This document shows positions 11,305-29,030 of a stretch of DNA of 58,004 nucleotides, piece by piece (positions within the stretch are counted from its first letter, which is position 1; each line of letters starts with the position of its first letter). The notes under the pieces were generated by a model that was given only the letters and a program-made list of their open reading frames with translations, did not search any database and had not been told where the DNA came from. Source of the stretch: an uncultured Candidatus Saccharibacteria bacterium (GTDB lineage: Bacteria > Patescibacteriota > Minisyncoccia > Phycocordibacterales > CAIRYW01); contig CAYLQP010000004.1 in assembly GCA_964386665.1 (NCBI GenBank), forward strand, positions 22,845 through 80,848, read 5' to 3'. Position numbers and translations under genes: made by a program.

Positions 11305-12024
11305 ATGAGTAATATTTTTCACACTTTTTTTTATAATCCTATTTATAACGGTCTTGTATTTCTTATTGATATAATCCCTGGTGGCGATGCTGGGGTGGCG
11401 GTAATACTACTTACTATACTTGTATCTTTGATTTTGTTCTCTGTTTCAAAAAAAGCCATAAGAACACAAATAAGGATGAAGGAAATGGAGCCTGAAATGA
11501 AGAAAATCAGAGAAACTGTTTCTGATAAACAACAACAAGCACTCCAAATGATGGCTCTATATAAAAAGTACGATATTAACCCTTTTTCTGTTATTGTTCT
11601 TGTGATTATTCAAATACCTGTTCTGTTGGCACTTTATTTTGTGTTTTTGAAAGGAGGATTACCTGAGATTAATACAGATATTTTGTACTCTTTTATAAAG
11701 GTTCCTCAAGTGGTATCTATGAACTTCCTTGGAATACTCGATATTACGCAAAAAAGCCTCTTCTTGGCCCTTTTGGCGGGTGTGACGCAGTTTATACAAG
11801 CAAAGGTGGCTACACCAAAACTTGAGCCAAGAAAAGAAGGTCAGGCCTCATTTAAAGATGATTTTCAAAGATCTCTCAATACACAGGTAAAATATGTATT
11901 CCCTGTGATTATTGCTGTTATTTCAGTTAACTTCCCTGCTGCTCTACCTTTGTACTGGTCTACAAGAAATATCTTTATGACACTACAAGAACTCTACGTA
12001 AAGAAGAATCTTAAAAATAAGTAA
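11305..12024 (+). CDS. yidC: membrane protein insertase YidC (short form)
   Basis: 239 aa, multi-TM, in the conserved rnpA-yidC-jag context. Confidence 0.9.
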   Translation: MSNIFHTFFYNPIYNGLVFLIDIIPGGDAGVAVILLTILVSLILFSVSKKAIRTQIRMKEMEPEMKKIRETVSDKQQQALQMMALYKKYDINPFSVIVLVIIQIPVLLALYFVFLKGGLPEINTDILYSFIKVPQVVSMNFLGILDITQKSLFLALLAGVTQFIQAKVATPKLEPRKEGQASFKDDFQRSLNTQVKYVFPVIIAVISVNFPAALPLYWSTRNIFMTLQELYVKKNLKNK

Positions 12025-12060
12025 TTGACTTTGGGGAATTAGTGATTAATATAGATTGAT

Positions 12061-12513
12061 ATGGAACATAAAATCAAATTAACCATAAAAAATCTTACTG
12101 ACCTCCTTGGTTTTGAACCTCTTGAAATTAACGTAACTAAACAACCAGGAGTATTTGTTATTGATTTACATACTCAGGATGAAAAAACATTCCTAGGCAA
12201 AGATAATGAAAGATTCAATGCTTTTTCTCATCTAGCTAAAAAAATGCTTGCAAAAGACGTCGATGAAGATACAAAATTTGTGATAGATATTAATAACCTT
12301 CGGGGCAAAAATGATGATGCCTTGAAGATTCGAGCAAACATTCTTGCAGATCGAGCACGATCATTCAAAAAAGATATGGAGTTTCCTCCAATGACTTCTT
12401 ACGAACGTAGGGTGGTTCATTCTGCTCTCGAAGGATCTCCTTTTATCAAGACAGAATCGGTTGGTGAAGGAAAGGAAAGACATCTTGTGATTAGATATAC
12501 AGGAGAGAACTAA
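12061..12513 (+). CDS. jag: Jag/KhpB-like RNA-binding protein (KH + R3H)
   Basis: 150 aa with the R3H signature ERRVVHSAL. It is in the conserved position after yidC. Confidence 0.8.
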   Translation: MEHKIKLTIKNLTDLLGFEPLEINVTKQPGVFVIDLHTQDEKTFLGKDNERFNAFSHLAKKMLAKDVDEDTKFVIDINNLRGKNDDALKIRANILADRARSFKKDMEFPPMTSYERRVVHSALEGSPFIKTESVGEGKERHLVIRYTGEN

Positions 12514-12516
12514 AAA

Positions 12517-12544
12517 AACACCCCAGATCAAAAGGGTGTTTTTT
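12517..12544. terminator. bidirectional terminator between jag and the T4SS-like operon
   Basis: Stem acaccc / gggtgt flanked by an A-run and a T-run. Confidence 0.6.
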
Positions 12545-13949
12545 AGTTTGTTGTTTTTGTTGAAGTGCTTGTTTGTGTAGTAGTGGCAGTAGTTGTTGCA
12601 CTGTTTATTGTACTTGTTGCTGTACTTGAAATAGGTTTTTTTGTCTCACTTAGGATAAGTCCCCAAAACGAAAGATTCTTTTTGTTTATAAAAGTAAGAT
12701 AAGAGTCATCTTCTGAAATTTCTAGGCTTATTGCATCCATACTTTCTCCTCCATCTCTTTCTGGGATAGAAATAAGATTTGTTGTTGCCGTGTTGGTATT
12801 TATTTTCCAAATACTGTCATTAAAGGTTACTCTGCCTTGATACCAATAATCAGGGTATATTCCATTTGGGATAAGGACTGGTATAGCACAATACACAATA
12901 AAGGTTTCTTTTTTTGATGCGACGCATTTTTCAGGTAGTGTATTACCAAGAAAAACAGGTTCTGTTGAAGGTGTTTTTTGTTTGATACTGAAAAGAGAAA
13001 TACCGTTTCCTCCTCTTCCTACGAGATAATCTCCTTCCCCTACTGGTTTAATAGTAAGGCCAAATACACCTCCAAGTATTTTTGTCATATTTCCTGTGTT
13101 TGTATTGAGATTATATGCAAAACCTTGTGTATATCCAGATGGTTTTGTTGATATTGTTGCTTCATTTTCTTTGTTCCAAGAGAGAAGCCATTCACGCAGT
13201 GGCGATTCGTAAATCTTCTTTTTGTTTGTGTTGTTTGTGTTTGCTACTATCAAAGTTCCGCTCTCATTTTCATTATACAAAGAATAAAGTAATCGGTTTC
13301 GAAGCGGTGAAGCGGTAATTTCCTTTATATTATCATCAAGATTTAGACCAATAGACTCTTTTGTAATATCTGTATTTTGTATAATTGTAGTACTTGCGGT
13401 GGTGCTTGCTAACACGAGAGGGAGGTTTTTTAGAGTCACTGTATATGTTTTGATAAGTTCAGTATCTGTGTTATCCAAAAAACGTGCTACGAAAGAATCT
13501 GGATTCAAGAAAATGGCTTCATATGTTTTTGGAAGAGTGGTGTTTGAAATTTTTTTTGTGACAAGTGAATCTTTTGTTGTTTCAAAAACATGCCCTGTTG
13601 CCCTATCAACAAAACGCACTCGCACCTCTTCTTCTTTAGTTACTTCGTTTTTTGTTTTCCAAACAATAGATCCTGATGTAGGTCTTCCGTGAATCTTTCT
13701 GAGTTTTGATACTGTTGCAGTAGTTGTTGAGGTTGGTGATGATTCCTCTTCAAATACAGACTCTTCCCCTTCGAAAAGAGTGTCTGGGTCTCGAGATGGT
13801 TTACCAAAAGGAAATATCTCTCTTACTTTTTTGGTAAAAGCACTTTCATCTTCTTGTACTGGAGTTTTTGTAATAAAGAAAAGAGCACCTAAAATAAGGA
13901 GGAAAATGATTATAATAATACTTAATATGATTAATATTTTTCTTGGCAT
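12543..13949 (-). CDS. membrane-anchored exported protein, last gene of the T4SS-like operon
   Basis: 468 aa with an N-terminal TM (ILIILSIIIIIFLLILGALFFI) and a Ser/Thr-rich C-terminal tail. I recognised no motif. Confidence 0.6.
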   Translation of the reverse strand: MPRKILIILSIIIIIFLLILGALFFITKTPVQEDESAFTKKVREIFPFGKPSRDPDTLFEGEESVFEEESSPTSTTTATVSKLRKIHGRPTSGSIVWKTKNEVTKEEEVRVRFVDRATGHVFETTKDSLVTKKISNTTLPKTYEAIFLNPDSFVARFLDNTDTELIKTYTVTLKNLPLVLASTTASTTIIQNTDITKESIGLNLDDNIKEITASPLRNRLLYSLYNENESGTLIVANTNNTNKKKIYESPLREWLLSWNKENEATISTKPSGYTQGFAYNLNTNTGNMTKILGGVFGLTIKPVGEGDYLVGRGGNGISLFSIKQKTPSTEPVFLGNTLPEKCVASKKETFIVYCAIPVLIPNGIYPDYWYQGRVTFNDSIWKINTNTATTNLISIPERDGGESMDAISLEISEDDSYLTFINKKNLSFWGLILSETKKPISSTATSTINSATTTATTTQTSTSTKTTN

Positions 13950-13952
13950 AGT

Positions 13953-14987
13953 TTATTTTTTTATACGTAAGGTTGACCAATACTTTGCGCCTCCTATATA
14001 TGTTTCTTCAGAAGTTCCTCCTGATATAACACCATCTTTTCCAATTAACTCTGAAAGTATTTTAACACCTACTTCCAGATTTTTTTGTGGATTCTTTAGG
14101 TCTGTAGTAGTGATTCCCGTAAACCCATAACCTCTTGATGATTCATAAGAAAGTTGCATAAGGCCTGTTGAGATTATTTGTTGACCATCATTATTTAATC
14201 GCGGTGAACCATCTTTATTCCTTTCAGGATAAGTTAAAGTCGGGTCAAAACCAGATTCTTTTGCTGTAATTCCCGCGATTAAATTTGCCCAGTTTTGTGG
14301 GTTTCGTGCATCACCATCAGGGAAAAAGGCTGTTGCATCACGTGGATTAAGATTTGTTAAACCATATTTTTCTACAAGCCTTAACACTTCGTCATTCCAT
14401 TCTGCATTCTTGAACTTTGAGTTAAGTAATGGGTCGTTTGGATCAACGTACCCATCAACATCGTTGTTTGGACCTGTACGATTCGCTGAGGTGGTTGGAC
14501 CAATCTCTTTCATATCAAAATAAAACGCTGCTTCTTTGGAAAGAAGGTAATTAAAAGCTCGTGGATCCACAGACTTTATATCCAAACTTACATTAACAAG
14601 GTTTGGATCAATTGTTCTTAAAATAACAAAAGAACTAAGTGCTAATAACAAACCCATTATTGCATTACTGATTCGCTCTTTCCCTTCTTCCTTCCCTCCT
14701 ATCGCATCGGTAGTGATGTATTCAATTCCACCCATAATTATCATTAAGACGGCAAGTCCTGTAGCAAGAGCGATACCCATACGATAGAGTGTGCGGAAAT
14801 ATGTTTGTAAGTAATTATCATCAATCTTTACTGATGTTTGTGCCGAGCCTGCTACATCTGGGAGTGGTGCGAGCATCTCATAATTAACCGCACCATACGT
14901 GAAAGTTACAAAAGAAAACAAAAACATTAAACTGAGAATTACTTTTCGCATTACTATATATAATCTCATATTTTTATTCTTTTTCAA
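13953..14987 (-). CDS. VirB2/TrbC-like pilin module fused to a lytic transglycosylase (SLT) domain
   Basis: Signal peptide, then two hydrophobic helices flanking the charged loop TTDAIGGKEEGKERISN, which is the pilin-like topology. The C-terminal SLT motifs are AKESGFDP (catalytic E-S) and TGLMQLSYES. Confidence 0.75.
   Translation of the reverse strand: MKKNKNMRLYIVMRKVILSLMFLFSFVTFTYGAVNYEMLAPLPDVAGSAQTSVKIDDNYLQTYFRTLYRMGIALATGLAVLMIIMGGIEYITTDAIGGKEEGKERISNAIMGLLLALSSFVILRTIDPNLVNVSLDIKSVDPRAFNYLLSKEAAFYFDMKEIGPTTSANRTGPNNDVDGYVDPNDPLLNSKFKNAEWNDEVLRLVEKYGLTNLNPRDATAFFPDGDARNPQNWANLIAGITAKESGFDPTLTYPERNKDGSPRLNNDGQQIISTGLMQLSYESSRGYGFTGITTTDLKNPQKNLEVGVKILSELIGKDGVISGGTSEETYIGGAKYWSTLRIKK
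14575..14816. repeat. 242-bp block identical to 15579-15820
   Basis: A base-by-base comparison gave no mismatch over 242 bp. The flanks diverge immediately on both sides. Confidence 0.9.
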
Positions 14988-14998
14988 AGAAAACTTAC

Positions 14999-15955
14999 TT
15001 AGTTTGGTCTAAAAATATATGTAGAAAGACCTTGTGTTCCCTCATAATACCTCTGCCAGCTTGTTGCGGTATGGTTCTGCATAATTTGCTGATGGCTACT
15101 ACTATTTGAAATGATAGTTGCTCCTCCTGGTGCATTTACAATTCCAACATGACCTGTTTGTTTTCCTGATGTTGGAGAAAGGACAATATCCCCTGGTTGC
15201 GCAGAAGCAAGACCGCCTCGGACAAGAGTAAATCTATTATCACTTCTTAGGCTTTCGTACATATCTACAGTGGATAAGCTATTATTTACCGGCTTGCCAA
15301 GTGCATTTTCTACAATCATATTTACCGAATAAGCACAGGCAAGTCTTCCTCCATTAGTACCAGAAACATTACAGGTTGTTCTGTTTATTGCATCTCGAGC
15401 ACTTTTAAGAATTGCTTCACCCTGAGAAGTTGTTCCAAGATTTTGTAGTTGTTGTTCTTGTCGCCATTTTTCTTTATCTTCTTCGGTGACATTTAGAAAT
15501 TCGCTTGTGGTCCGTAATTCTTGTTCATAATATGCTTCAGACATAAGTAATTGTTGAAATGCTGCCTGATCCACTAATTTTATATCCAAACTTACATTAA
15601 CAAGGTTTGGATCAATTGTTCTTAAAATAACAAAAGAACTAAGTGCTAATAACAAACCCATTATTGCATTACTGATTCGCTCTTTCCCTTCTTCCTTCCC
15701 TCCTATCGCATCGGTAGTGATGTATTCAATTCCACCCATAATTATCATTAAGACGGCAAGTCCTGTAGCAAGAGCGATACCCATACGATAGAGTGTGCGG
15801 AAATATGTTTGTAAGTAATTTTCGTCTATTGTTACTTCTGTATCAATGCCTCCTGTTGCATTAGGTAGAGGGGCGAGCATTTGGTATTTAACTTGACCAT
15901 AAGTAAAATTAAAAAGAGAGAAAAAAAACATAAAAATTAATATAGTCTTTTTCAT
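14999..15955 (-). CDS. VirB2/TrbC-like pilin module fused to a CHAP/NlpC-P60-type cysteine peptidase domain
   Basis: It has the same pilin-like module as the neighbouring gene. The C-terminal GGRLACAYSVNMIV supplies the Cys and PGDIVLSP..GKQTGHVGIV supplies the His. Confidence 0.7.
   Translation of the reverse strand: MKKTILIFMFFFSLFNFTYGQVKYQMLAPLPNATGGIDTEVTIDENYLQTYFRTLYRMGIALATGLAVLMIIMGGIEYITTDAIGGKEEGKERISNAIMGLLLALSSFVILRTIDPNLVNVSLDIKLVDQAAFQQLLMSEAYYEQELRTTSEFLNVTEEDKEKWRQEQQLQNLGTTSQGEAILKSARDAINRTTCNVSGTNGGRLACAYSVNMIVENALGKPVNNSLSTVDMYESLRSDNRFTLVRGGLASAQPGDIVLSPTSGKQTGHVGIVNAPGGATIISNSSSHQQIMQNHTATSWQRYYEGTQGLSTYIFRPN
15579..15820. repeat. 242-bp block identical to 14575-14816
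   Basis: Second copy, offset by 1004 bp. It encodes the pilin-like helices of the paralogous gene. Confidence 0.9.
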
Positions 15956-15973
15956 TTTAATAATTTCTAGTGT

Positions 15974-16984
15974 TTAGTTTTCTGTTGAGAGGTTAATCGT
16001 TACTTGATTTCGGGCTTCTTGTAAAAGATTGGTTGGATGTTTAATAAGTACATTCACGAGTGACTTCCCTTCGGTGTTAGTGTCATATCTAAATAGGGTT
16101 GTATCAGTGTTGAAGATTGGAGAAGGTGTTCCATTAATATTCCACGTGTAATTCAATGAACCTTTTTTCTTTGAGGTGGTTTCAAAGAAAAAAGGTGAAG
16201 CCGCAAGACTCAATTCTTTGTTTTTGAGTGAGATCTCGGTAAGTGCCTTGTTGTGCAGTATTCCGTATAGAGGGTTGTTTTCATACAGTAATACTTCTGG
16301 GGCAAAGAAGTTAATAAAAGCTTCTCCTTTTGCTTTGTTTAAGAAATCGTCTTTGACTTCTACTTGAATAGTTTCGGGTTTAAGTAGGTATCCTCCTTTG
16401 AGTGAAAAAGTGTTTTTAAGAAAGCCTGACTGATCGTTTACTATTGAATAGTCTTGTTTCCATTTATAGGTTGGATTGAGAGGGTTTGTAATAACGCTAT
16501 TTTTATTAACAAAATGTGGAATTGCCACTGCGATAATGTTTCCAAGATAGCCTGGTAATGCCTTACCTTTATAAAATGGGGGTGTATAGCTTCTTGATTC
16601 CCAAATAACATCAACTTCTTGCGGAGTAAATGAAAAGGTTTTTTCTATATTTTTTCCTCCACCAAAAGGCACAATACTGACAAATACGTTTTGGGTTGTC
16701 CCGAGTGTGCCGTTGGTAAATTCAAATACTTGTTCTCCTCGCCCTGTTTTTTTTGTTACTCCGTTTATCTTCCAAGTAATAAATGCACGAGTAAGATCGG
16801 TTCCAAAGGCTTCAGCCTTTATTTTTATTTGATCACCAGTTTTTGGTGAGTCTGGTGTAACAATAAAAGAAACCTGTTCTTCTAGTTCAGGTATTTGGCT
16901 TGGAATTGATGTTTGTTGCCCAAAAGAAAAAACTGGAAACAATAAGAAGTATGTAAACGTAAGAAAAAAATATGTTCGTGACAC
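15974..16984 (-). CDS. secreted protein of the T4SS-like operon, function unknown
   Basis: 336 aa with the signal peptide MSRTYFFLTFTYFLLFPVFSFG. The composition looks beta-rich. Confidence 0.6.
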   Translation of the reverse strand: MSRTYFFLTFTYFLLFPVFSFGQQTSIPSQIPELEEQVSFIVTPDSPKTGDQIKIKAEAFGTDLTRAFITWKINGVTKKTGRGEQVFEFTNGTLGTTQNVFVSIVPFGGGKNIEKTFSFTPQEVDVIWESRSYTPPFYKGKALPGYLGNIIAVAIPHFVNKNSVITNPLNPTYKWKQDYSIVNDQSGFLKNTFSLKGGYLLKPETIQVEVKDDFLNKAKGEAFINFFAPEVLLYENNPLYGILHNKALTEISLKNKELSLAASPFFFETTSKKKGSLNYTWNINGTPSPIFNTDTTLFRYDTNTEGKSLVNVLIKHPTNLLQEARNQVTINLSTEN

Positions 16985-17079
16985 ACATATAGTATAATCA
17001 AATTATTGATTTGTATCAAATAGTTGTCTGTGATTTACAGAGACGTTTATAGAAACTAGTTTGTAACAAAATAAACAAA

Positions 17080-17847
17080 CTACTTCCCCATCTCATTAGT
17101 GAGGGTTTTTTTAAGGAGACCAGTTATTTTTGACCCACCTCCTTTTTGAGTTGGAGTACCTTTTTGAAGAGTAAGGTTTTCGGTTTGTGGTTCTACAGAA
17201 GGTGTTGGTTGTGGTGCGGGTGTCTGAGGTGCTTTTTTTGTTGCTGGAACATAGGGTGCTGGTGTTTGTCTTTTTGTTGGTTGTGGTGTACTTGTACTTG
17301 GCTTATTTGTTTGAGTTGGAGTACCTTTTTGAAGAGTAAGGTTTTCGGTTTGTGGCTCTACAGGAGGTGTTGGTTGTGGTGTACTTATAATTGGCTTGTA
17401 GCTTTGAATTGATTTGGGGTTTAAGGTGTTTTGAGGTGTAGGAGGAGTATTTTCCTTATTTGATTGTTGGTAATTTTTTTGTACTTGAGTTTGTGTTGTT
17501 GTTTCTTCTTCTGTTTGCGAACTTGGTTGTTTTGTGTTCGCATTTTGAGCTGCTACTTGTTGTGCTTGGGTATTGGCTAATTGAGCTTTTTGTTTTTGAT
17601 CGTTTTTTAACAATCTTTTTTTAAATGGTCCATAATAAAAAGAGAGTCTAAGAAACCCTCGGACAAGTATACCTCCTAAGATTGTAAAATCAGCAGCAAA
17701 TCCCCAAAGAGCGATTTGTCTTACCCACCCTTTTCCTATTTTTGTGAGTCGTTCACCAGAAAAAAGTCTTCCAAAAAGAAACTCAAACATCATAATAACA
17801 CTGCCGATTATTGGTATTGGACAAAGAAGAAAAAGAAATATTTTCAT
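17080..17847 (-). CDS. membrane protein with a Pro/Thr/Gln-rich repeat tail
   Basis: 255 aa. The N-terminal region is hydrophobic. The tail contains two copies of PQPTP.VEPQTENLTLQKGTPTQ. Confidence 0.6.
   Translation of the reverse strand: MKIFLFLLCPIPIIGSVIMMFEFLFGRLFSGERLTKIGKGWVRQIALWGFAADFTILGGILVRGFLRLSFYYGPFKKRLLKNDQKQKAQLANTQAQQVAAQNANTKQPSSQTEEETTTQTQVQKNYQQSNKENTPPTPQNTLNPKSIQSYKPIISTPQPTPPVEPQTENLTLQKGTPTQTNKPSTSTPQPTKRQTPAPYVPATKKAPQTPAPQPTPSVEPQTENLTLQKGTPTQKGGGSKITGLLKKTLTNEMGK
17145..17381. repeat. two 72-bp direct repeats (17145-17216 and 17310-17381)
   Basis: Two mismatches in 72 bp with a 165-bp period. This is in-frame, equal to 55 aa. Confidence 0.85.
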
Positions 17848-17850
17848 AGG

Positions 17851-19662
17851 TTATTGTTCGAGGGCTTTTCGAGCTTCTCGCATTTGAAGTACTTGGGCAG
17901 GGTCAGATGTAATGATCTGATCTTCGGTATAAGAACCGATAATTTTGATTGCAACGTGTTTAAGTCCCGCAAAGAAGATCCCCTCCCCTACGTCTGATTC
18001 AAGCAAGAGGTACTTTTCTTCTTCTGTAAGGTTAAACGTTCTTTGAATTTCATCAATTGATGATGGGGATTGTTTGAGGAGAAGTTGGATAGAAGAGTTT
18101 GTGATAATAGGTCCTCCATAAGGTGATTTAAGGAAGTCTTCAACGTCTTGGGTAATAGTTGAAAGTGCGAGGTAGTATTTTCTTCCTCGTTTTGCAAGAC
18201 CAAGAAGGAATGATGCTGTGTCGTCTGATTTCATCATCCACCATGCCTCGTCGATCACAAGAAGTCGTTTTTTTAGTTTTTGTCGGATAGAGTTCCAAAT
18301 AAAGTGGGTCACAATATACATTGCAACTGGTTTAAGTTCGTCTTCCATATCTCGAAGTGAGAAAACAACAAATTTCTTGTTGATATCAACGTTTGTTGGT
18401 CTGTTGATAAATCCAGCCCACGTTCCTTTTGTATATTTTTCGAGACGTTGTACGAGGGAAGATCCTCCTTCCATTCCGGCGAGTACAAGTTCAAAGTCAG
18501 ACATAAGAGGTGGTTCAATTGCAGTGAAATCTGATGTTGGAGTGATATCTTTGAGTGCGTATGTTTCACTAATCGCTCGGTCAATGATTGAATCTTCTTC
18601 TGGAGTGAGTCCTCCAAGCATAATACGAAACAGACCAACAAGGTTGATGATGTTTGATCGAAGTACGTCGGCTGGTGATTCATCTTCTCGTGCAACCGGA
18701 AGATCAAATGGGTTGATGTGGTGTTCAGAAGTAAGAGAAATATTAAAATATCGCCCCCCTGTTGCTTCTGCCATATACTCATATTCTCGTTCAGGGTCGA
18801 TGACAATCACATCAATATCAAACATAAGCGAACGAAGGATTTCGAGTTTTGTACAATAACTTTTTCCCGCTCCGGCTTTGGCAAAGGTAACTGAGTTGTA
18901 GTTTTCGAGAGAAAATCGGTCAAACAAAATAAGGCTTGAGTTGTGACGGTTAACTCCATACAGAATCCCTTTATCTGAAGTGAGGTCAAAAGAAATAAAT
19001 GGAAATATACTTGAGAGTGGTGATGAGTTTAGTTTTGAATTAACAGCAAGCTCATCTTGTCCAAGAGGCGCGACACTTCTAAACCCTTGTTCTTGTTGGA
19101 AGAGCGCTGGTTTGATGTATACGAGTTTTGATTCGAGAATTGAAACGATTTCAGATTCGATTTTGTCTATTTCATCTTCTGTTTCTCCGTAAATAGTAAA
19201 ATAAAGTCCTACATCAAAGATTCTTTCTTGGGCTTGTTGAAGCTGATCTCGGAGGCTTTCGAGGTCCTGGTAGGCAGTATCAAGAACTGGATCTCGCACC
19301 AACCCCTTTTCTTCTCTGTCACTTATTTGACTTTGTACCTCTGCCACCTTTTTCTTAAATTGGCGTAGTACTTGAGCAGTATCGATTGGATGGATAAATA
19401 TCGAAATATCAAATATTTTGTCTAAGTTAATGATTGGTGCAAACCAGCTCTCTGTTAAGAAACGCGGGTAAGAGATAACAAAAAAGGTTCTTGCAATCTT
19501 GCTTCCAAGATTGAGTTCTTTTGAAGAAATCTTGAGTGCTGATGGTGCGAGTACATCTTCAAGTTCAAGAACACCTGATTGATAAATTTCCTGTGGCAAA
19601 ATTGCAGTCACAGGTCTTTCAAGTTCTTCGTTCTTTTTTCCAAATAAACCAAAAAATGCCAT
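17851..19662 (-). CDS. virB4: VirB4/TraC-family type IV secretion ATPase
   Basis: 603 aa with Walker A FAKAGAGKSY, Walker B LLVIDEAWWMM and a C-terminal TQDVEDF region. Confidence 0.85.
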   Translation of the reverse strand: MAFFGLFGKKNEELERPVTAILPQEIYQSGVLELEDVLAPSALKISSKELNLGSKIARTFFVISYPRFLTESWFAPIINLDKIFDISIFIHPIDTAQVLRQFKKKVAEVQSQISDREEKGLVRDPVLDTAYQDLESLRDQLQQAQERIFDVGLYFTIYGETEDEIDKIESEIVSILESKLVYIKPALFQQEQGFRSVAPLGQDELAVNSKLNSSPLSSIFPFISFDLTSDKGILYGVNRHNSSLILFDRFSLENYNSVTFAKAGAGKSYCTKLEILRSLMFDIDVIVIDPEREYEYMAEATGGRYFNISLTSEHHINPFDLPVAREDESPADVLRSNIINLVGLFRIMLGGLTPEEDSIIDRAISETYALKDITPTSDFTAIEPPLMSDFELVLAGMEGGSSLVQRLEKYTKGTWAGFINRPTNVDINKKFVVFSLRDMEDELKPVAMYIVTHFIWNSIRQKLKKRLLVIDEAWWMMKSDDTASFLLGLAKRGRKYYLALSTITQDVEDFLKSPYGGPIITNSSIQLLLKQSPSSIDEIQRTFNLTEEEKYLLLESDVGEGIFFAGLKHVAIKIIGSYTEDQIITSDPAQVLQMREARKALEQ

Positions 19663-19670
19663 ATATAATT

Positions 19671-20306
19671 TTATTTTACTAATGTGCTTCCAATATTCAT
19701 TGGCTTCTCTACTTCTCCAGGGTTAAAGGTTTTATAGTAAAGCTCAATAAGTTCTTCTGTTCCAAGTGGCACTCCTCGAACTCCAAGTCGAGACAATCCT
19801 TGTACTACGACTTCCATTCGCTGAAGAAGTTGAGTTCTATTTTCTTCAAAACTATCCGCGTCTCCTTTATGGTTTGTCTTCTGCATTATACCAGAAAGAA
19901 TCCCTTTTTTTGTTTCAATGATTGCTGGAGTATATGGAATGATAACAAAAAATGTTTTTGTCATAATATTTACTGAGCTTGTGAAATTCTTGATGAAGTC
20001 GATGTATTCGTTGGTTTGTATCCGAAGAAGTTCGTTTTTTTGTTCTTTTGCGACGTCTTCGAGAAGACCAATATAAGGTTTTATATCAAGGCGTCGTGAT
20101 TGGGCAGTAATTTGAATAGAAAAGTTAAGTGAGTTAAGAAAGTTTTGAAATTGATAGATGATTGCAGTCTGTTCATCAACACTTTTGAGTGCAAAGTTAA
20201 TAGACGAAGTCATTACAACAGCACGCATTGAACCATCTTGCATAATTGCAATTCCGTCACGAATCTCTTTTATAGGTACAAAACTTTGGGTGCTTTTTGA
20301 TTGCAT
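19671..20306 (-). CDS. T4SS-operon protein, possibly a detached VirB4 N-terminal-like module
   Basis: 211 aa, 8 bp upstream of virB4. The start (FVPIKEIRDGIAIMQDGSMRAVVMTSSINFALKSVDEQTAII) resembles the start of Gram-positive VirB4 homologues. The resemblance was judged by eye only. Confidence 0.5.
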   Translation of the reverse strand: MQSKSTQSFVPIKEIRDGIAIMQDGSMRAVVMTSSINFALKSVDEQTAIIYQFQNFLNSLNFSIQITAQSRRLDIKPYIGLLEDVAKEQKNELLRIQTNEYIDFIKNFTSSVNIMTKTFFVIIPYTPAIIETKKGILSGIMQKTNHKGDADSFEENRTQLLQRMEVVVQGLSRLGVRGVPLGTEELIELYYKTFNPGEVEKPMNIGSTLVK

Positions 20307-20308
20307 AT

Positions 20309-20791
20309 TTATTTATATGGATTATACGCGTTATTTGCTTTTTTTGCATCTTGATATACGTTGTTCTCGTTTGTGTACTCTTTTGCGTCTGGCATTGTTT
20401 CATTGATATCTAGGTTCCAGGTGAGTTCTCGTAGTTTTGATTTTGAGAGTTTTGGTACATAGAGTTTTGAAACATTTGCGCCATTCACTATGACATTTGT
20501 TTTAGGAGCTTTTTTCTCTTTTTTCCAAATATATAACTTGTGAGTGAAAAAAAACTTTACTGCTGAAATAACTGTCTCGAGAAAAGGCTTGTTGTTTACC
20601 TTGTAAAACGCTAGTGCAACTGAGAATGCGGCAATAGGAAGAATAATAAGAAATGCAATAAAACTTGGGAGTAATCTATATACCAAAAAACACATTCCTC
20701 CCCCACCCACAAGATATACAAACTGTTTGAATGTAAGTGGTCCAAAGATCTTGTCTTCGATTTCGATAAATTGTGGGACTTGATATTGCAT
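20309..20791 (-). CDS. PrgI-family / VirB3-like small membrane protein
   Basis: 160 aa. MQYQVPQFIEIEDKIFGPLTFKQFVYL is followed by two TM helices, and the gene lies just upstream of the VirB4 genes. Confidence 0.6.
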   Translation of the reverse strand: MQYQVPQFIEIEDKIFGPLTFKQFVYLVGGGGMCFLVYRLLPSFIAFLIILPIAAFSVALAFYKVNNKPFLETVISAVKFFFTHKLYIWKKEKKAPKTNVIVNGANVSKLYVPKLSKSKLRELTWNLDINETMPDAKEYTNENNVYQDAKKANNAYNPYK

Positions 20792-20809
20792 AAAACTTTT
20801 TTGATTCTT

Positions 20810-21589
20810 TTATATAGCTTCTCGATACGGATCAATCTTCTTTTCTGGAGCATTTGTTGGTGTTACTTGAGTTTCTGGAAGAGGTGTTGTTTCTTGTTTT
20901 GGTGTGATTGCTTGTTCTATGGGCGCCTCTTTTTTTGGGATGACTTCAACTGGGGCCTTTTCAATGAATGAATGCATAGTGACAATGTTAGTGAGCTTTT
21001 CGTTATCGATATGACTTAAGATTTTTTCACCCAGGGTTTTAAGTTCGTTGGTGAGAGGAGATGTTTCAACGGTAGGTTCTGGCGATGTTGTGATTGTTTC
21101 TTGTGCCACGAGAGGTTCCTCTGTCTTCTTTTCCCCTTGGATTACTTTCCGCACTGTTGCTTTCGTTGGGTTCTCTATTTCTGCGAGGAGATCCTTGGGA
21201 TTGAGTCTGGTTTCATCTTCTTCATCTTCTTCGTGGATATGAATGAGTGTTTGAGGTTTGAAAGGGCTCTCGTGTTTGTATGTCTCAACCAAGATATGTT
21301 TGATTGGTTCAAAGACCGTATCGTTGATGTCTCGGACAATAGTACTTGCATCAAGAAGTGAAAGATGGAGTGCGCTTGAGATTTCTGTTTCGAGGTTTTT
21401 TGTGGCAATAATACCCATAACAGTATCCATAACAATATCGTGTAATATACCCGCTTCATCGATATGAAGATGGTGTTTTTCTGCAAGAGCAAATATTTTT
21501 TCACTTTGCTCTGATGATGTACAAAACTCCTGAATCTCTTTTGGGAGTTTTGCAAATAGTTCTCTGTATTGTTCTCGGGTAAGTTTCAT
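20810..21589 (-). CDS. acidic soluble protein of the T4SS-like operon, function unknown
   Basis: 259 aa with no TM segment and a Glu/Thr/Pro-rich C-terminal half. Confidence 0.55.
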   Translation of the reverse strand: MKLTREQYRELFAKLPKEIQEFCTSSEQSEKIFALAEKHHLHIDEAGILHDIVMDTVMGIIATKNLETEISSALHLSLLDASTIVRDINDTVFEPIKHILVETYKHESPFKPQTLIHIHEEDEEDETRLNPKDLLAEIENPTKATVRKVIQGEKKTEEPLVAQETITTSPEPTVETSPLTNELKTLGEKILSHIDNEKLTNIVTMHSFIEKAPVEVIPKKEAPIEQAITPKQETTPLPETQVTPTNAPEKKIDPYREAI

Positions 21590-21593
21590 AATA

Positions 21594-24422
21594 TTAAGGG
21601 TTTGAAGGGTTTATTGGTGGAATAGATGGAGGAGGTGGAACTCCAGTGCCTGGAGGAGGTACCGCAGGGTTAGGTGGTGTGTGAGAATTATTTTGAGATC
21701 CACCACTTGGAGGAGGTACCGCAGGGTTAGGTGGTGTGTGAGAACTATTCTGAGATCCACCACCACTACCAAATGGATTAGCTGGTTGTGGAGAAGTGGA
21801 TGCAGCAGACTGTCTATTTTGTCTTGTTTGTCTGTTTTGTGTTCTTGTTTTCATTGCGTCTTGTGCAATACCCTCTCCTTGCACACCCATTTCTGTTCCA
21901 TAGTATCGTGCCATATTTTTTCCGACTCGTCCTGTTGTAAAGTCTTTTGGTAACATTTTTTCTTCGTAATATTCAATTGCGTGATCAAGCGTTGAATCAT
22001 TACTTTCATTAAAGGTATTTGTTTCGCCAATACTTCGTAAGTATGCATTTATCTTAGTTCTAAATGCTCTCTTTGATGCTAAGTCGTTTGTATCAACTGC
22101 GTGTTTATATTCTTGAAGTCTTTTTATTTGTGGATCCATTGAACCACTTCCAAGGTCGTTATAATTTTGTTCATTTAATCGGCCGCTCCGTTGAAGTTGT
22201 TCAAAAAGGTTTCCTTGTATGAGATCCGCAACCATCGGGTTTGTAAGCTGCTCGGTCGAAAGTCCTTCTTGTTGTTTAGTGTTAAGGTTCGCAAAATACT
22301 TACGCAGTGCTACTCCATCGTCGCTATTTCTCAGTTTGAGCTGATTATCTTGTATCTTTGTTGTAACAGTCTTTAATTCATTTTCTGCTTTTGTAATATC
22401 AGCTTGATCTGCACCAGATCTTTTTAAAGCATCTAGTTTTTTTGTTAGTTCTTCTCGTTTTCCATTTAACCCTTTAAATTTTATTTTTGTTCCATCAGCT
22501 TGTGTTTCTTCAAATTCTTCATCTAATTCTTTGAATTCTTTAGTAGATTCAAGTTTTTTCTGCATCTCATCGTATCGTTGTCTATGTACAGGAAGAGCCC
22601 CTTCTTGTTTTCGTTTAAGCGCATCTTGTTGGTTAGGATCAAGACGACCAAGAAGTTTGTTTTTTGCTTTTTCTATTCTTGCTTTTTCTTTTGTATCTCC
22701 TTCTGCTTCTGCCGCCTTTATTTTTGCATCAAATTGCTCCATCATTTCTGCCTGATCATCAAGTTTCATTGCTTCCCATGCCTTTTCAAGTGCAACTCGA
22801 ACGTTAAGATCCTTTTCTGCTTTTAAGGTCATTTCAGCTAAGAATTCTGCTTGTGCAGCTGGTTCTCCTCGCATTTCATACAACGCTTCTGCAATACCAT
22901 GTTGCTTTTCATCAAACTCTTCTTTGAAGCTATTACCTTCTCCTACTTTTGCATTTACCCCTGCTTTCAACATACTTTTTACAGCACCAGCTCCTGCGCC
23001 CAATATACCACCTTTTGAAATCATCTTTTCCATTCCGGTTTTAAATTGACCTCTCCAACCATGACCGACTGTACCTGTTTTATCTTTTCCTTCATAAAGT
23101 GCATAAGCAGCTTTCCCAATTGTTCGTCGGACAGCTGCTTGTACTGGTCGTCCCCCAAGGTTAGCCTTGAGTTTTTTGTATGCTCCCATTGCTGCACCTG
23201 CTCCACTGGCCCCCATCTTCTCTCCTGCTACAAGGGCCATAATAAAGAAGTTGATGACTATGATGTAATTCACGACAGTTGGAATATCAAACCAAAACCC
23301 AGTATCTTTTCTATTGAGTGTACTTTGAAAATTGGGATCAAGCATTATATGAAAGGTTATCCAGATAATAGCAACAAATATAGGTGCATAAAATGACTCT
23401 GCAATCAGTTTTTCCCACCACTCATGTGCATATCCTTCAGTCTTATGTAGTAAACTTCCTGCAAACGCAAGTGAAGAGGTCATTATAAGAATCATAATGG
23501 TGACGAGCCGTTTTATAAATATAAGTGTGGCAGCCAAAAAGATACAAAAAACGAAAAACATTGCAATACTTCCCATTAAAAAGATGGTTCCAGCATTACT
23601 CTTTTGGGCAAAAGCTGTGGCACCAGACATATCTGCTCCTTTTGCATCTCCTTTTTTGTAGTCAGCAAATAATTTTTGAAATTGAAAAGAGGCCATAAAT
23701 GCACCTCCAATACCTCCCTTTGTAGTAGAAGGGCCATCATATGTTTTTGTAAATAAATCTGCTATATTATCTGTTTCTGCGCTAGGTTGAATTTTTTTAT
23801 AAAAACTAATTGCAAGAATATTTGAACTATCAACCACAACCTTAGCAAAAAACATACTAAAGTTGATAAGAATGGCGATAAGTACTAGTTTACTAAGCGT
23901 ATGTTTTACTCCATGTTCATTAAGTCCAAGAATTGTTGATATTGCTAAGTAAATAAGAATGAATATAAGAAGAATGTTAGTGAAATCTCGAAACACTTTC
24001 CATACGGCGCTAATGGCACCAATCTTATTTATTGTTTCTGCCATCCCAATCACTGTAAATTCAAAAACTATATTGAAAAGCCAAACACTAAATCCAAGTA
24101 TCCATGCTACCATCGCCAGTATGTAGTAAAATACTTTTTCAAAACAGTTCCATAGGCTTGAGTTATTATAGGCCTGACCATCAGGAAGCAGTACATTTTT
24201 TTCTCCAAGTGTTTCAAAAACACAAAGTCCGTTGTCATTATTTTTATTAGCTTGGACTGCCGCAATCTGACCATCAACAAACTCCTTGGGCATCATTGCC
24301 ATTGCAAGCACCTTGGGACCTGTATTTGGGATAACAATATGAAGCCAAAAAAGAGAAAAAGCAAAAACCAAAAAGATTTTTTTTATCAATAAGGTTTTGT
24401 TTTTTTCTCTTTTTTCAAACAT
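21594..24422 (-). CDS. large polytopic membrane protein, VirB6/TrbL-like by topology and context
   Basis: The N-terminal ~460 aa carry many TM helices. A long Lys/Glu-rich coiled-coil-like region and a Pro-rich tandem-repeat C-terminus follow. I moved the start to the MFEKREKNK Met (24422) so it does not overlap the divergent PAP2 gene. Confidence 0.55.
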   Translation of the reverse strand: MFEKREKNKTLLIKKIFLVFAFSLFWLHIVIPNTGPKVLAMAMMPKEFVDGQIAAVQANKNNDNGLCVFETLGEKNVLLPDGQAYNNSSLWNCFEKVFYYILAMVAWILGFSVWLFNIVFEFTVIGMAETINKIGAISAVWKVFRDFTNILLIFILIYLAISTILGLNEHGVKHTLSKLVLIAILINFSMFFAKVVVDSSNILAISFYKKIQPSAETDNIADLFTKTYDGPSTTKGGIGGAFMASFQFQKLFADYKKGDAKGADMSGATAFAQKSNAGTIFLMGSIAMFFVFCIFLAATLIFIKRLVTIMILIMTSSLAFAGSLLHKTEGYAHEWWEKLIAESFYAPIFVAIIWITFHIMLDPNFQSTLNRKDTGFWFDIPTVVNYIIVINFFIMALVAGEKMGASGAGAAMGAYKKLKANLGGRPVQAAVRRTIGKAAYALYEGKDKTGTVGHGWRGQFKTGMEKMISKGGILGAGAGAVKSMLKAGVNAKVGEGNSFKEEFDEKQHGIAEALYEMRGEPAAQAEFLAEMTLKAEKDLNVRVALEKAWEAMKLDDQAEMMEQFDAKIKAAEAEGDTKEKARIEKAKNKLLGRLDPNQQDALKRKQEGALPVHRQRYDEMQKKLESTKEFKELDEEFEETQADGTKIKFKGLNGKREELTKKLDALKRSGADQADITKAENELKTVTTKIQDNQLKLRNSDDGVALRKYFANLNTKQQEGLSTEQLTNPMVADLIQGNLFEQLQRSGRLNEQNYNDLGSGSMDPQIKRLQEYKHAVDTNDLASKRAFRTKINAYLRSIGETNTFNESNDSTLDHAIEYYEEKMLPKDFTTGRVGKNMARYYGTEMGVQGEGIAQDAMKTRTQNRQTRQNRQSAASTSPQPANPFGSGGGSQNSSHTPPNPAVPPPSGGSQNNSHTPPNPAVPPPGTGVPPPPSIPPINPSNP
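21651..21764. repeat. 2 x 57-bp tandem repeat
   Basis: Units at 21651-21707 and 21708-21764 with three mismatches. They encode GGSQN.SHTPPNPAVPPPS twice at the C-terminus of the VirB6-like protein. Confidence 0.85.
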
Positions 24423-24476
24423 AAGGTAATATAATAAGTATACAATATTTTTTTTAAAAAAAGTACCAAAAAACAA

Positions 24477-25232
24477 ATGAATCAATCAAAAACTAAGTAT
24501 TACTTATTGATAATTTTAATTTTTCCTCTTGTCATTTTTCTTACTTTAGGGTACAAAAATATTAATTCTTTTACTTTTTCTAAAACAGAAGAATGGGACC
24601 AAAATTTAATACATTCTATACAAAGCAATCGGATGCTCATTAATAATACAGTTTCATATATTAATTTAGGCACTCCCCCAAAAAATTCTTCAAAAGTGAC
24701 TCAAGATGAGCTTGCATATCTGATTAGTCTTAAAAAAGAAAGAACAGAAGAGAAGGTGAAGGAAATAAAAAGCGAAATAAATATAGAATACTGGATTTTT
24801 GATAATAAGTTTTTCTACGAGTATTTACAAGATAAGCAATATTCTGAATTTTTATTATCAGAGTTATCGACGTTGTACCCAATCACATTATATCAAAAAC
24901 AAATTTTTGATCGGGCTAGACCTTATATTTTAGATTCCAATGTTGATCCAATACTCTATCCTAAACATCCTGCATATCCAAGTGGTCATGCTACCCAGGC
25001 ATATTTTTTGGCTGAATTATTTTCACTTATTAATCCCTCTAAAAAAGAAATATATTTTGCCAATGCAAAGGTAATTGCCCATAATAGAGAAATTGCGGGA
25101 GTCCATTACCCAAGTGATAGTCAGGCGGGAAAAGAACTGGCTCAACAATACTTAAAGTTTAGGTTAAGTGATAATTCGTTTATTACAAACCTGAAAAAAG
25201 CAAAAGATTCTTTATCTCTGGAGAAAAATTAA
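24477..25232 (+). CDS. PAP2-superfamily phosphatase
   Basis: 251 aa with an N-terminal TM. PAP2 motifs are RARPY, PSGHA and NREIAGVHYPSD. Confidence 0.8.
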   Translation: MNQSKTKYYLLIILIFPLVIFLTLGYKNINSFTFSKTEEWDQNLIHSIQSNRMLINNTVSYINLGTPPKNSSKVTQDELAYLISLKKERTEEKVKEIKSEINIEYWIFDNKFFYEYLQDKQYSEFLLSELSTLYPITLYQKQIFDRARPYILDSNVDPILYPKHPAYPSGHATQAYFLAELFSLINPSKKEIYFANAKVIAHNREIAGVHYPSDSQAGKELAQQYLKFRLSDNSFITNLKKAKDSLSLEKN

Positions 25233-25238
25233 TTTATT

Positions 25239-28217: not shown

Positions 28218-29030
28218 ATGAAAAGCACATATAAAAAAATTTTTTCTTTACTCTTTTTCTTTTTTGCTTTTGATGTTGTATCAGGGGCGGAGCTTTTTGT
28301 CTCTGATTTGAGATTAAATTCACAGGGTGAAGAAGTGAAACTCCTTCAAGAGGTACTCAATACTGATTCGCACACAATAGTGAGTCCAAGTGGTGCTGGA
28401 TCTCCTGGAAATGAAACTGTATTCTTTGGTCAAAAGACAAAAGAAGCTGTTATCCGCTTTCAAGAAAAATATAGTAATCAAATTCTTACCCCACTCGGAC
28501 TTTCAAGAGGAACTGGTATTGTTGGGTTCAATACAAGAAAAATGCTTAATGAAATCAAAGGCCAAGTCTCCTTTTCACCTGTAAACAACACTTCTTTAGA
28601 TAGTATGGCTCAAACACAAAACGTGTTTGTATCAGAAAATAAATATCCTCAAATTACTTCTTTAAGTACAGGTGTTATCAAAGACCCTTTTGTCACTCCT
28701 TTGGTTATCACTGGAAAGAATTTTACGGCTGATAATCAGGTGTTTTTATCAGTTCAAGGACTAGAAATATTTGATGCACCGTCTTTTGATGGTAGTACAA
28801 TTTCTGTTTTTTTGCTTTCTCAGGTAACTAATACGTTAGAGAATTATATTTCGAGTGTATTGGCACAAAGTGGTAATACTCAAACAAGGGAAAGCATTAT
28901 TGATGTTTTGAAGGTACAGTTTAATTCAGTTGGGCGTGATGGGGTGTATGTTCCTGCATCTATTTTTGTAAGAAATAAAAACGGTGAGAGTAATAAATTT
29001 GGTATAAAGATTAATATTCTAAAAGAGTAA
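28218..29030 (+). CDS. secreted peptidoglycan-binding-domain protein
   Basis: 270 aa with a signal peptide. The PG_binding_1-like segment is LRLNSQGEEVKLLQEVLN...FGQKTKEAVIRFQEKY. Confidence 0.65.
   Translation: MKSTYKKIFSLLFFFFAFDVVSGAELFVSDLRLNSQGEEVKLLQEVLNTDSHTIVSPSGAGSPGNETVFFGQKTKEAVIRFQEKYSNQILTPLGLSRGTGIVGFNTRKMLNEIKGQVSFSPVNNTSLDSMAQTQNVFVSENKYPQITSLSTGVIKDPFVTPLVITGKNFTADNQVFLSVQGLEIFDAPSFDGSTISVFLLSQVTNTLENYISSVLAQSGNTQTRESIIDVLKVQFNSVGRDGVYVPASIFVRNKNGESNKFGIKINILKE

Follow-up and report, generated by a model that had tools for sequence, protein, structure and literature searches.

VirB1-like bifunctional wall hydrolases belong to Gram-positive conjugation systems and include TraG of pIP501, PrgK of pCF10, CwlT of ICEBs1, and TcpG of pCW3. 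In Agrobacterium, VirB4 extracts the pilin VirB2 from the membrane. In monoderms, the VirB1 enzyme is membrane anchored and has both an SLT and a CHAP domain (PMC12102498). For Patescibacteria, type IV secretion systems (T4SSs), PF18895 pilins, and a T4SS location near dnaA have already been published. An association of VirB1 homologues with VirB4 is seen in Paceibacteria and is missing in most other classes. VirB1 is absent from the majority of genomes that have VirB2-like pilins, and it may be dispensable for pilus biogenesis (PMC12102498). In that 2025 survey, VirB1 and VirB2 were treated as distinct proteins, and the supplement gives a single label per protein (PMC12102498). The pilus of the PF18895 family is described as predicted or potential (PMC10633639, PMC12857230). 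We analyzed a stretch of 58,004 nucleotides (the window; contig CAYLQP010000004.1 of assembly GCA_964386665.1, deposited as an uncultured Candidatus Saccharibacteria bacterium) in which two adjacent genes, here called gene 1 and gene 2, each join a PF18895-type module to a predicted peptidoglycan hydrolase. An earlier note on this sequence had proposed that one VirB2/TrbC-like pilin module is fused to two different wall hydrolases, one cutting glycan and the other peptide. Pfam matches, predicted folds, and relatives agree with that architecture, and the interpretation as a whole was partly supported. In our favored reading, to which we give an even chance, the pair is a split, pilin-addressed VirB1 equivalent of a Paceibacteria-type patescibacterial T4SS.

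Both open reading frames (ORFs) lie in tandem on the minus strand, at 14999-15955 (gene 1) and 13953-14951/14987 (gene 2), adjacent as the earlier note had said. The mechanical ORF of gene 2 starts with TTG at 14987 and encodes 344 amino acids (aa), while an ATG at 14951 gives 332 aa; alignment with the paralogue (MRKVILSLMF... against MKKTILIFMF... in gene 1) makes the ATG the most likely start. In both proteins, a signal peptide is followed by a PF18895 two-helix hairpin, and a disordered linker of ~45 to 50 residues then leads to the wall hydrolase. The signal peptides, which we judged by eye from their n-, h-, and c-regions, start with MKK or MRK, continue into a hydrophobic core, and end at TYG/Q or TYG/A. 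Hydropathy places two membrane helices (58-76 and 93-111) on either side of the charged loop TTDAIGGKEEGKERISN, and AlphaFold2 (AF2) agrees, with helices at 47-80 and 84-114 (predicted local distance difference test [pLDDT], 75 to 86). In the AF2 models, residues ~120-170 are disordered (pLDDT below 50 to 60) and are followed by a confident C-terminal domain; for gene 1 the mean pLDDT is 76, and the C-terminal domain exceeds 90.

An 81-residue segment (NYLQTY...SLDIK) is the same in both proteins, as had been noted, and the underlying DNA is perfectly identical over 242 nucleotides (nt), with 15579-15820 equal to 14575-14816. Outside this run, DNA identity falls to ~63% on the 5' side, which encodes the signal peptides and N termini, and to ~40% on the 3' side. 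Because there is not one synonymous difference across the 80 codons of the shared core, the identity exceeds what chance and purifying selection alone would leave. A 242-nt run between signal peptides that have diverged and C-terminal halves that are unrelated is what recent gene conversion leaves behind. Since the N termini are ~63% identical in DNA and the core 100%, the duplication is old and only the core has been homogenized.

Eleven fused pairs were compared (the window, L001, L003, L004, L005, L007, L011, L012, L024, L028, and L030), with identical core runs of 242, 319, 173, 164, 453, 300, 263, 254, 128, 77, and 41 nt. Between genomes, the pilin cores share only ~40 to 65% protein identity, and the tract ends vary by genome. 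In arrays of small pilins (L033 to L038; 3 to 7 genes), by comparison, shared runs measure 6 to 26 nt, in agreement with the published mean of 25% identity inside such arrays. We concluded that the enzyme-carrying pairs are repeatedly homogenized, whereas the stand-alone arrays diversify. This contrast between concerted evolution here and divergence elsewhere suggests two uses of one module. In the same arrays, the longer members have the module at the C terminus and not the N terminus.

An assembly artifact was ruled out as the source of the identical run and the fusions, because the pattern recurs in 11 assemblies of separate projects, among which tract ends and partner domains vary; an assembly swap across the repeat would in any case leave both genes fused. 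In L005 (ENA scaffold_562, 87 kb), the T4SS pair region occurs twice, inverted around the center. This is most likely a palindromic assembly artifact, and we counted this locus once.

The Pfam family PF18895 (T4SS_pilin) matched gene 1 with 25.9 bits and gene 2 with 24.8 bits (E values, 1e-5 and 2e-5), against a cutoff of 26.6. The relatives match the same family: 56 of 57 at E ≤ 0.01 and 78 of 80 at E ≤ 0.001 (best, 3.6e-13). The syntenic orthologues in L001, L003, L004, and L005 score 27 to 33 bits. These relatives back the subthreshold matches of the window proteins. Both proteins also show what marks a PF18895-type pilin, namely, a signal peptide as judged by eye, a short charged loop flanked by two hydrophobic helices, and a VirB4/VirB3 neighborhood. 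For TrbC (PF04956), the window proteins gave no match at E ≤ 0.1, and among the relatives it was weakly matched by 4 of 57 (E ≤ 0.01) and 6 of 80 (E ≤ 0.001; best, 1.7e-5). The assignment as a pilin rests on PF18895 together with the weak TrbC matches of relatives. A six-frame search with the module profile found no pilin modules in the 58 kb other than those of these two genes.

The C-terminal domain of gene 2 matched SLT (PF01464) with 38.6 bits (cutoff, 21.3), and gene 1 gave no SLT match. A phmmer search of gene 2 against the PDB returned DslA (6ta9; E = 1.3e-17), with the next match at an E value of ~1. Foldseek likewise aligned the gene 2 model with 6ta9 (E = 2e-9; 30 to 32% identity; TM[target], 0.69, and 0.70 for 6taf; root mean square deviation, 2.6 to 2.8 Å). 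DslA (Bd0314 of Bdellovibrio bacteriovorus) is a lysozyme active only on peptidoglycan whose N-acetylglucosamine is deacetylated; it uses two glutamates, E143 of an ES motif and E154 on beta1, and S166 and Y228-W229 shape its cleft (PMC7511926). In gene 2, E232-S233, E243, S261, and Y324-W325 align with E143-S144, E154, S166, and Y228-W229. Among homologues, E232, S233, and G263 are invariant and Y324 and W325 nearly so; E243 is kept in the nearest relatives and not in one subgroup (P0028, P0031, P0042, and P0045). The DslA disulfides C117-C253 and C182-C199 are absent, as there is no cysteine in the 332-aa protein, and the beta1-2 hairpin has a 6-residue insertion relative to DslA.

The earlier note had called this domain a lytic transglycosylase. 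At the level of fold the SLT match is right, and the residues that the note had cited (E232-S233 and G263) proved invariant. The mechanism is a different matter: family 1 lytic transglycosylases work nonhydrolytically with a single catalytic glutamate, and here a second acid, E243, stands at the position of DslA E154. From this second glutamate and the YW motif, together with the match to DslA, we predict that gene 2 encodes a DslA-type muramidase that acts by hydrolysis, rather than a lytic transglycosylase. The enzyme may possibly be specific for N-deacetylated peptidoglycan.

For gene 1, the CHAP (18.9 bits; cutoff, 26) and NlpC/P60 (16 bits; cutoff, 23) scores were both below threshold, and gene 2 matched neither. 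C207 and H269, the catalytic pair pointed out earlier, and N284 are invariant in 17 homologues. Foldseek placed the C-terminal domain of gene 1 closest to Tse1/Tae1 (E = 4.5e-4; probability, 1.0; TM[target], 0.59), and the family profile matched the N-terminal amidase domain of the endolysin Lys2972 (8tw1; E = 1e-7). By fold, the nearest protein is Tse1/Tae1, and by sequence profile it is the endolysin amidase domain. The CHAP/NlpC assignment of the earlier note holds as a papain-like fold with an invariant Cys-His-Asn set, although the Pfam scores themselves do not reach their cutoffs. Its predicted activity is that of a Cys-His-Asn papain-like peptidoglycan amidase or endopeptidase.

The pair sits in a tight minus-strand operon that encodes, in order, a 963-aa polytopic protein, a 259-aa protein of no assigned function, PrgI, a TraC-like piece, VirB4, a 255-aa transmembrane (TM) protein, a 336-aa secreted protein, gene 1, gene 2, and a 468-aa TM protein (Table 1). 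VirB4 matched the NCBIfam model conju_CD1110 with 359 bits (cutoff, 325) and also P-loop_TraG, and the piece at 19671-20306 matches the N-terminal parts of VirB4 models. Four genomes (L001, L003, L004, and L005) keep the order PrgI, TraC-like, VirB4, two unassigned genes, two pilin-module genes, and a final unassigned gene, each with two adjacent pilin-module genes, and in L001, L003, and L004 yidC and dnaA follow. Family scans of the operon genes found no other VirB1-like gene inside the operon, and the 36 window ORFs that were scanned included no relaxase or coupling protein. The window is chromosomal DNA (G+C content, 32 to 42%) with dnaN, dnaA, yidC, a class A penicillin-binding protein (PBP), ruvB, pilB, ksgA, uvrD, PNPase, and other housekeeping genes. 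The wall-related genes near the cluster indicate that the organism makes its own peptidoglycan. We conclude that the cluster is a Gram-positive-type chromosomal T4SS of Patescibacteria, with a CD1110/FATA-like VirB4, near the replication origin, as described by Quinonero-Coronel et al. in 2025 (PMC12102498).

Table 1. Features of the gene pair, the operon, and nearby wall-related genes (window coordinates)
Feature	Position	Strand	Basis or remark
Gene 1, pilin module plus papain-like (Tae1/CHAP-type) putative peptidoglycan amidase	14999..15955	-	ORF, 318 aa; PF18895 25.9 bits; CHAP E 2e-3
Gene 1 signal peptide, residues 1-20, MKKTILIFMFFFSLFNFTYG	15896..15955	-	Judged by eye from n-/h-/c-regions; AF2 helix 3-13
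Gene 1 pilin core, codons 46-125, copy 1 of the 242-nt run; TM1 58-76, charged loop, TM2 93-111	15579..15820	-	DNA identity, hydropathy, PF18895
Gene 1 flexible linker, residues 127-177	15425..15577	-	AF2 pLDDT ~41-60; unconserved in homologue alignment
Gene 1 predicted amidase domain, residues 178-318	15002..15424	-	Conservation in 17 homologues, Foldseek, profile match
Gene 1 catalytic C207; H269; probable third residue N284	15335-15337; 15149-15151; 15104-15106	-	Invariant in 17 homologues
Gene 2, pilin module plus predicted DslA-type lysozyme, 332 aa	13953..14951	-	SLT 38.6 bits; PF18895 24.8 bits
Gene 2 pilin core, copy 2 of the 242-nt run	14575..14816	-	DNA identity
Gene 2 DslA-like lysozyme domain, residues 172-332	13956..14438	-	phmmer, Foldseek, residue mapping onto DslA
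Gene 2 E232-S233; E243; S261; Y324-W325	14253-14258; 14223-14225; 14169-14171; 13977-13982	-	Mapped onto DslA
Split VirB4 ATPase	17851..20306	-	TraC-like N piece 19671-20306; P-loop piece 17851-19662
PrgI/VirB3-like protein	20309..20791	-	PF12666 E 6e-11
963-aa polytopic membrane protein with long hydrophilic tail	21594..24485	-	At least 7 hydrophobic segments; no Pfam match
Conserved gene, TM plus P/T/Q-rich repeats	17080..17847	-	Syntenic counterparts of 157-258 aa in L001, L003, L004, L005
Conserved secreted gene, 336 aa	15974..16984	-	Syntenic counterparts of 332-351 aa in L001, L003, L004, L005
Conserved last operon gene, 468 aa, N-terminal TM helix	12543..13949	-	Counterparts of 396-483 aa in all four relatives
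Class A PBP	5228-7684	+	Wall-related gene near cluster
PG_binding_1 protein	28218-29030	+	Wall-related gene near cluster
LysM-M23 peptidase	32569-33561	+	Wall-related gene near cluster

The VirB4 split seen in the window is also kept in L001, L003, L004, and L005. The 963-aa protein is a putative VirB6-like protein, possibly an extended VirB6; its tail is charged and coiled-coil-looking, with a duplicated GGSQN.SHTPPNPAVPPP motif at the end. Upstream of PrgI there is a large unannotated ORF (650 to 990 aa) in L003, L004, and L005, which is absent from L001. The low-complexity region of the gene at 17080-17847 holds a duplicated segment of ~23 residues (PQPTP.VEPQTENLTLQKGTPTQ). This gene has no match in Pfam or NCBIfam, and those at 15974-16984 and 12543-13949 have none in Pfam, NCBIfam, or the PDB. 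In a promoter and terminator scan of 12000-25500, counts were no higher than in shuffled sequence. A prophage endolysin or a conjugative element was ruled out as the origin of the pair by the weak PHROG matches, the flanking yidC/dnaA and housekeeping genes, the conserved synteny with dnaA, and the lack of a relaxase or coupling protein among the 36 ORFs scanned.

Two explanations have little probability. The pair could encode housekeeping autolysins whose two-helix anchor is incidental, and a recent tandem duplication would then account for both the identical segment and the location in the T4SS cluster; the PF18895 scores below the cutoff would suit such proteins, and neutral gene conversion is frequent in tandem paralogues. 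We find this hardly credible. The same operon position recurs with full synteny in at least four other genomes; the duplication is old, and only the core was homogenized, in 11 lineages independently of one another and with tract ends that differ; and nearly all relatives (56 of 57 and 78 of 80 in the two sets) are PF18895 members. Alternatively, the proteins may be cleavable propilins from which the hydrolase is cut off at pilin maturation, as in RP4 TrbC, leaving a free hydrolase near the assembly site and an undecorated pilus. C-terminal trimming of TrbC-type pilins is established, and a TI(N/D)P motif at the module end is strongly conserved, after which the unconserved linker begins. That linker carries no conserved cleavage motif, however, and there is no TraF/S26-like maturation peptidase among the operon genes scanned, which makes cleavage very improbable.

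The architecture is not confined to the window. The earlier note had advised surveying databases for it, and pilin-hydrolase fusions do recur in other genomes, with varying partners. In the window and L024, the first gene of the pair carries a CHAP-like domain and the second a DslA-like domain; in L004, a chitosanase-like domain of the GH75 type comes first and a CHAP-like domain second. Glycan-cutting and peptide-cutting partners thus occur together more than once. The first gene of L001 is DslA-like and those of L005, L011, and L030 are CHAP-like, each followed by a gene with an unassigned second domain; the second partners of L001 (304 aa) and L005 (347 aa) gave no match in Pfam, the PDB, or pairwise searches, and an M15-like or 3D-like identity is no more than a guess. 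In L003 and L007 (SLT-like first) and in L028 (GH75-like first), the second gene encodes a near-plain pilin with a low-complexity tail. The GH75-like fusions are those at 9206-9997 of L004 and in the ORF at 2922-3879 of L028, with a conserved GD.GP..GE.S motif; the domain profile matched the viral chitosanase 7tvm (E = 2e-6).

Against 1.84 billion representative sequences, the module profile retrieved 57,689 clusters. Among the 145 closest single-module proteins, at least 100 residues follow the module in 117 and fewer than 40 in 11, and the extra domains recognized by Pfam are almost all peptidoglycan enzymes (CHAP, NlpC/P60, SLT, SLT_2, 3D, VanY, M15 peptidases, YkuD, and Amidase_5). Since this subfamily mostly has a large C-terminal extension, and the recognizable ones are nearly all wall enzymes, the module is a general carrier for wall-active enzymes. 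Database entries for these proteins are unnamed or are called "pilin" or "carboxypeptidase."

Three further observations concern these relatives. The largest unannotated C-terminal domain (25 sequences, of which 20 were aligned; examples are P0048, P0112, and P0120, and it also occurs in L016 and L032) shows conserved cysteines together with the invariant residues E, H, H, D, and HWH. It had no Pfam or PDB sequence match, and its resemblance to the LAS zinc-peptidase signature is a lead only. In 48 of the 193 collected relatives, 2 to 15 PF18895 modules stand in tandem in one polypeptide; P0071 (1,775 aa) has 15 by manual count and 17 stretches by hmmsearch. Such polytopic poly-pilin proteins cannot be ordinary pilus subunits. 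Finally, many of the records L006 to L038 are labeled uncultured Candidatus Saccharibacteria and one Gammaproteobacteria; these labels look generic or wrong, as we suspect because of the synteny and the Paceibacteria-type module.

The glycosidases found in this one slot bear on the question of whose wall is cut. The GH75-like domain is a second fold, unrelated to the DslA-type lysozyme, that points to a deacetylated glycan substrate. Together the two types point to N-deacetylated glycan, which could mark either wall, and we lean slightly toward the bacterium's own wall over that of a host. The opposite case would be that the pair encodes host-directed lytic effectors whose glycosidase (DslA type or, in other genomes, GH75 chitosanase type) acts only on N-deacetylated glycan, like that of Bdellovibrio, and so spares the producer, the pilin module being a delivery handle for the T4SS. 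The best solved relatives, the predator enzyme DslA that acts on a deacetylated prey wall and the interbacterial toxin Tse1/Tae1, would suit such effectors, as would the chitosanase-like fold that takes this position in L004 and L028 and the reported need for the T4SS in the epibiotic growth of Saccharibacteria. We nevertheless consider it quite unlikely. The specificity would follow from five conserved residues in a protein that lacks the DslA disulfides and has the 6-residue hairpin insertion, and a likeness to Tse1 is common to small single-domain amidases irrespective of function. A scan of 36 window ORFs revealed neither a polysaccharide deacetylase nor an immunity gene. Moreover, many monoderms have an N-deacetylated wall of their own, and these residues could equally well reflect specificity for self.

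If the pair is a split VirB1 equivalent, it may work as follows. Sec would export each protein, and the PF18895 VirB2-like hairpin would insert in the membrane so that its charged loop faces the cytoplasm and its two ends lie outside. This topology (after cleavage of the signal peptide, N terminus out, loop in, and C terminus out) is deduced from hydropathy and from known conjugative pilins. The enzyme would then be held outside on its flexible linker of ~45 to 50 residues. There the DslA-type two-glutamate lysozyme would cut glycan strands, probably with a preference for N-deacetylated peptidoglycan, and the Tae1/CHAP-type Cys-His amidase or endopeptidase would cut peptide stems, so that the two jointly replace the single TM-anchored SLT-plus-CHAP enzyme of Gram-positive conjugation systems. 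The identical core would be the address that brings both enzymes to one pilin-handling site (VirB4/VirB3/VirB6-like). A shared address would confine both enzymes to the site of the machine, and the wall would therefore be opened only there. The architecture with its conserved catalytic residues, the VirB4 and PrgI context, the conserved synteny, the presence of no other pilin modules nearby and of no further VirB1-like gene in the operon, the gene conversion of the core, the recurring pairs of glycan and peptide cutters, and the published data on monoderm VirB1 enzymes, on VirB1 with VirB4 in Paceibacteria, and on the T4SS near dnaA all support this reading.

Several points weigh against the split VirB1 equivalent. 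Both window proteins fall 0.7 to 1.8 bits below the PF18895 gathering threshold. The module profile matched no conjugative pilin in the PDB at E ≤ 10, and for that reason the structural kinship of the module to VirB2 is unproven; of the VirB2/TrbC-like label in the earlier note, what stood is membership in PF18895, by way of the relatives. The closest solved relatives of the enzymes are weapons used on the walls of other cells, DslA in exit from prey and Tse1 as an effector of a type VI secretion system (T6SS). A plain two-helix anchor needs neither pilin ancestry nor identical copies, and since it needs no identity, the homogenization fits coassembly into a polymer at least as well as docking. 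In addition, the near-plain pilin partners of L003, L007, and L028 share the core of their enzyme-bearing neighbors, and these pairs look like a major subunit with a decorated subunit.

These last points lead to an enzyme-armed pilus, in which true pilins extracted by VirB4 copolymerize, sometimes with a plain pilin, and carry the lysozyme and the amidase on the outer surface or at the tip. The armed filament would digest its way through the producer's wall and then into the wall of a contacted host. One helical lattice would require what gene conversion has produced in 11 genomes, identical cores; the linkers are long and disordered, the C terminus is predicted to be outside, and the window has no stand-alone pilin gene. 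PF18895 pilins are, moreover, essential to the patescibacterial T4SS and thought to form pili (PMC10633639, PMC12857230). We regard an armed pilus as a doubtful but serious possibility. No PF18895 protein is known to polymerize, the module has no sequence match to solved pilins, and a 16- to 18-kDa domain on every subunit of the window would be unprecedented for conjugative pili; as the relatives with 2 to 15 tandem modules demonstrate, the module serves as a membrane element outside filaments, too. A bolder form of the idea, which we hold to be unlikely, is a self-drilling pilus whose enzyme-bearing subunits, with identical cores in one lattice, have glycosidases of the DslA or GH75 chitosanase type that recognize N-deacetylated glycan and thereby spare one wall while digesting the other. 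If this is true, the essential but unexplained T4SS of Patescibacteria would have a defined part in opening the envelope of the host.

For the pilin-hydrolase fusion, its concerted evolution, and DslA-like or chitosanase-like domains in a T4SS setting, we found no description in the literature outside subscription journals. In Paceibacteria-type clusters at least, predicted wall hydrolases are present as fusions with the pilin module, and single-label annotation would hide them. The locus predicts that one address delivers a glycan cutter and a peptide cutter, that the attacked wall is N-deacetylated, and that the pilin cores must stay identical. The fusion points to how these ultrasmall, host-dependent bacteria pass a secretion machine or pilus through the cell wall, and the enzymes may serve as lysins against deacetylated, lysozyme-resistant walls.

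The earlier note had set the pair against the separate VirB1 and VirB2 proteins of canonical T4SSs. The genes do lie inside a T4SS cluster; the better baseline for it is the membrane-anchored bifunctional enzyme of monoderms, which has no pilin, and not VirB1 of Agrobacterium. Like the Gram-positive VirB1-like enzymes, the pair belongs to a FATA-type T4SS cluster and combines a membrane-anchored N terminus with a lysozyme-fold enzyme and a papain-like peptidase outside the membrane, a topology that is predicted here. Unlike them, it divides the activities between two genes instead of one polypeptide, uses two-helix VirB2-like anchors that are kept identical in place of a single TM helix, and has a glycosidase of the DslA type, not a classical SLT or muramidase.

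The patescibacterial PF18895 pilins, such as the essential array of Southlakia epibionticum, share with the pair the Pfam family and the type of chromosomal T4SS cluster. Those described so far are small and stand-alone and occur in arrays of 2 to 11 genes with a mean identity of 25% and a maximum of 54% (PMC12102498), whereas the pair consists of exactly two genes with identical cores, each with an enzyme domain of 140 to 160 residues. Gene 2 is 30 to 32% identical to DslA over ~157 residues and shares the ES motif, the second Glu, the serine corresponding to Ser166, and the YW motif (PDB 6TA9; PMC7511926). DslA is a free secreted protein, and gene 2 differs from it in the fusion to a pilin module, the lack of disulfides, and the hairpin insertion. 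Gene 1 has in common with Tse1/Tae1 and the Lys2972 domain a compact papain-like fold in which the Cys and His lie ~62 residues apart. It is only ~17% identical to Tse1, with predicted Sec delivery and a pilin anchor instead of a T6SS or a phage holin, and with no immunity gene recognized. Modular type IV pilins, for example, PilB of Streptococcus sanguinis, also join a polymerization module to a C-terminal functional domain. In the pair, however, the pilin fold and the machine are unrelated to theirs, and the added modules, which are adhesive in those pilins, are predicted to be wall-lytic.

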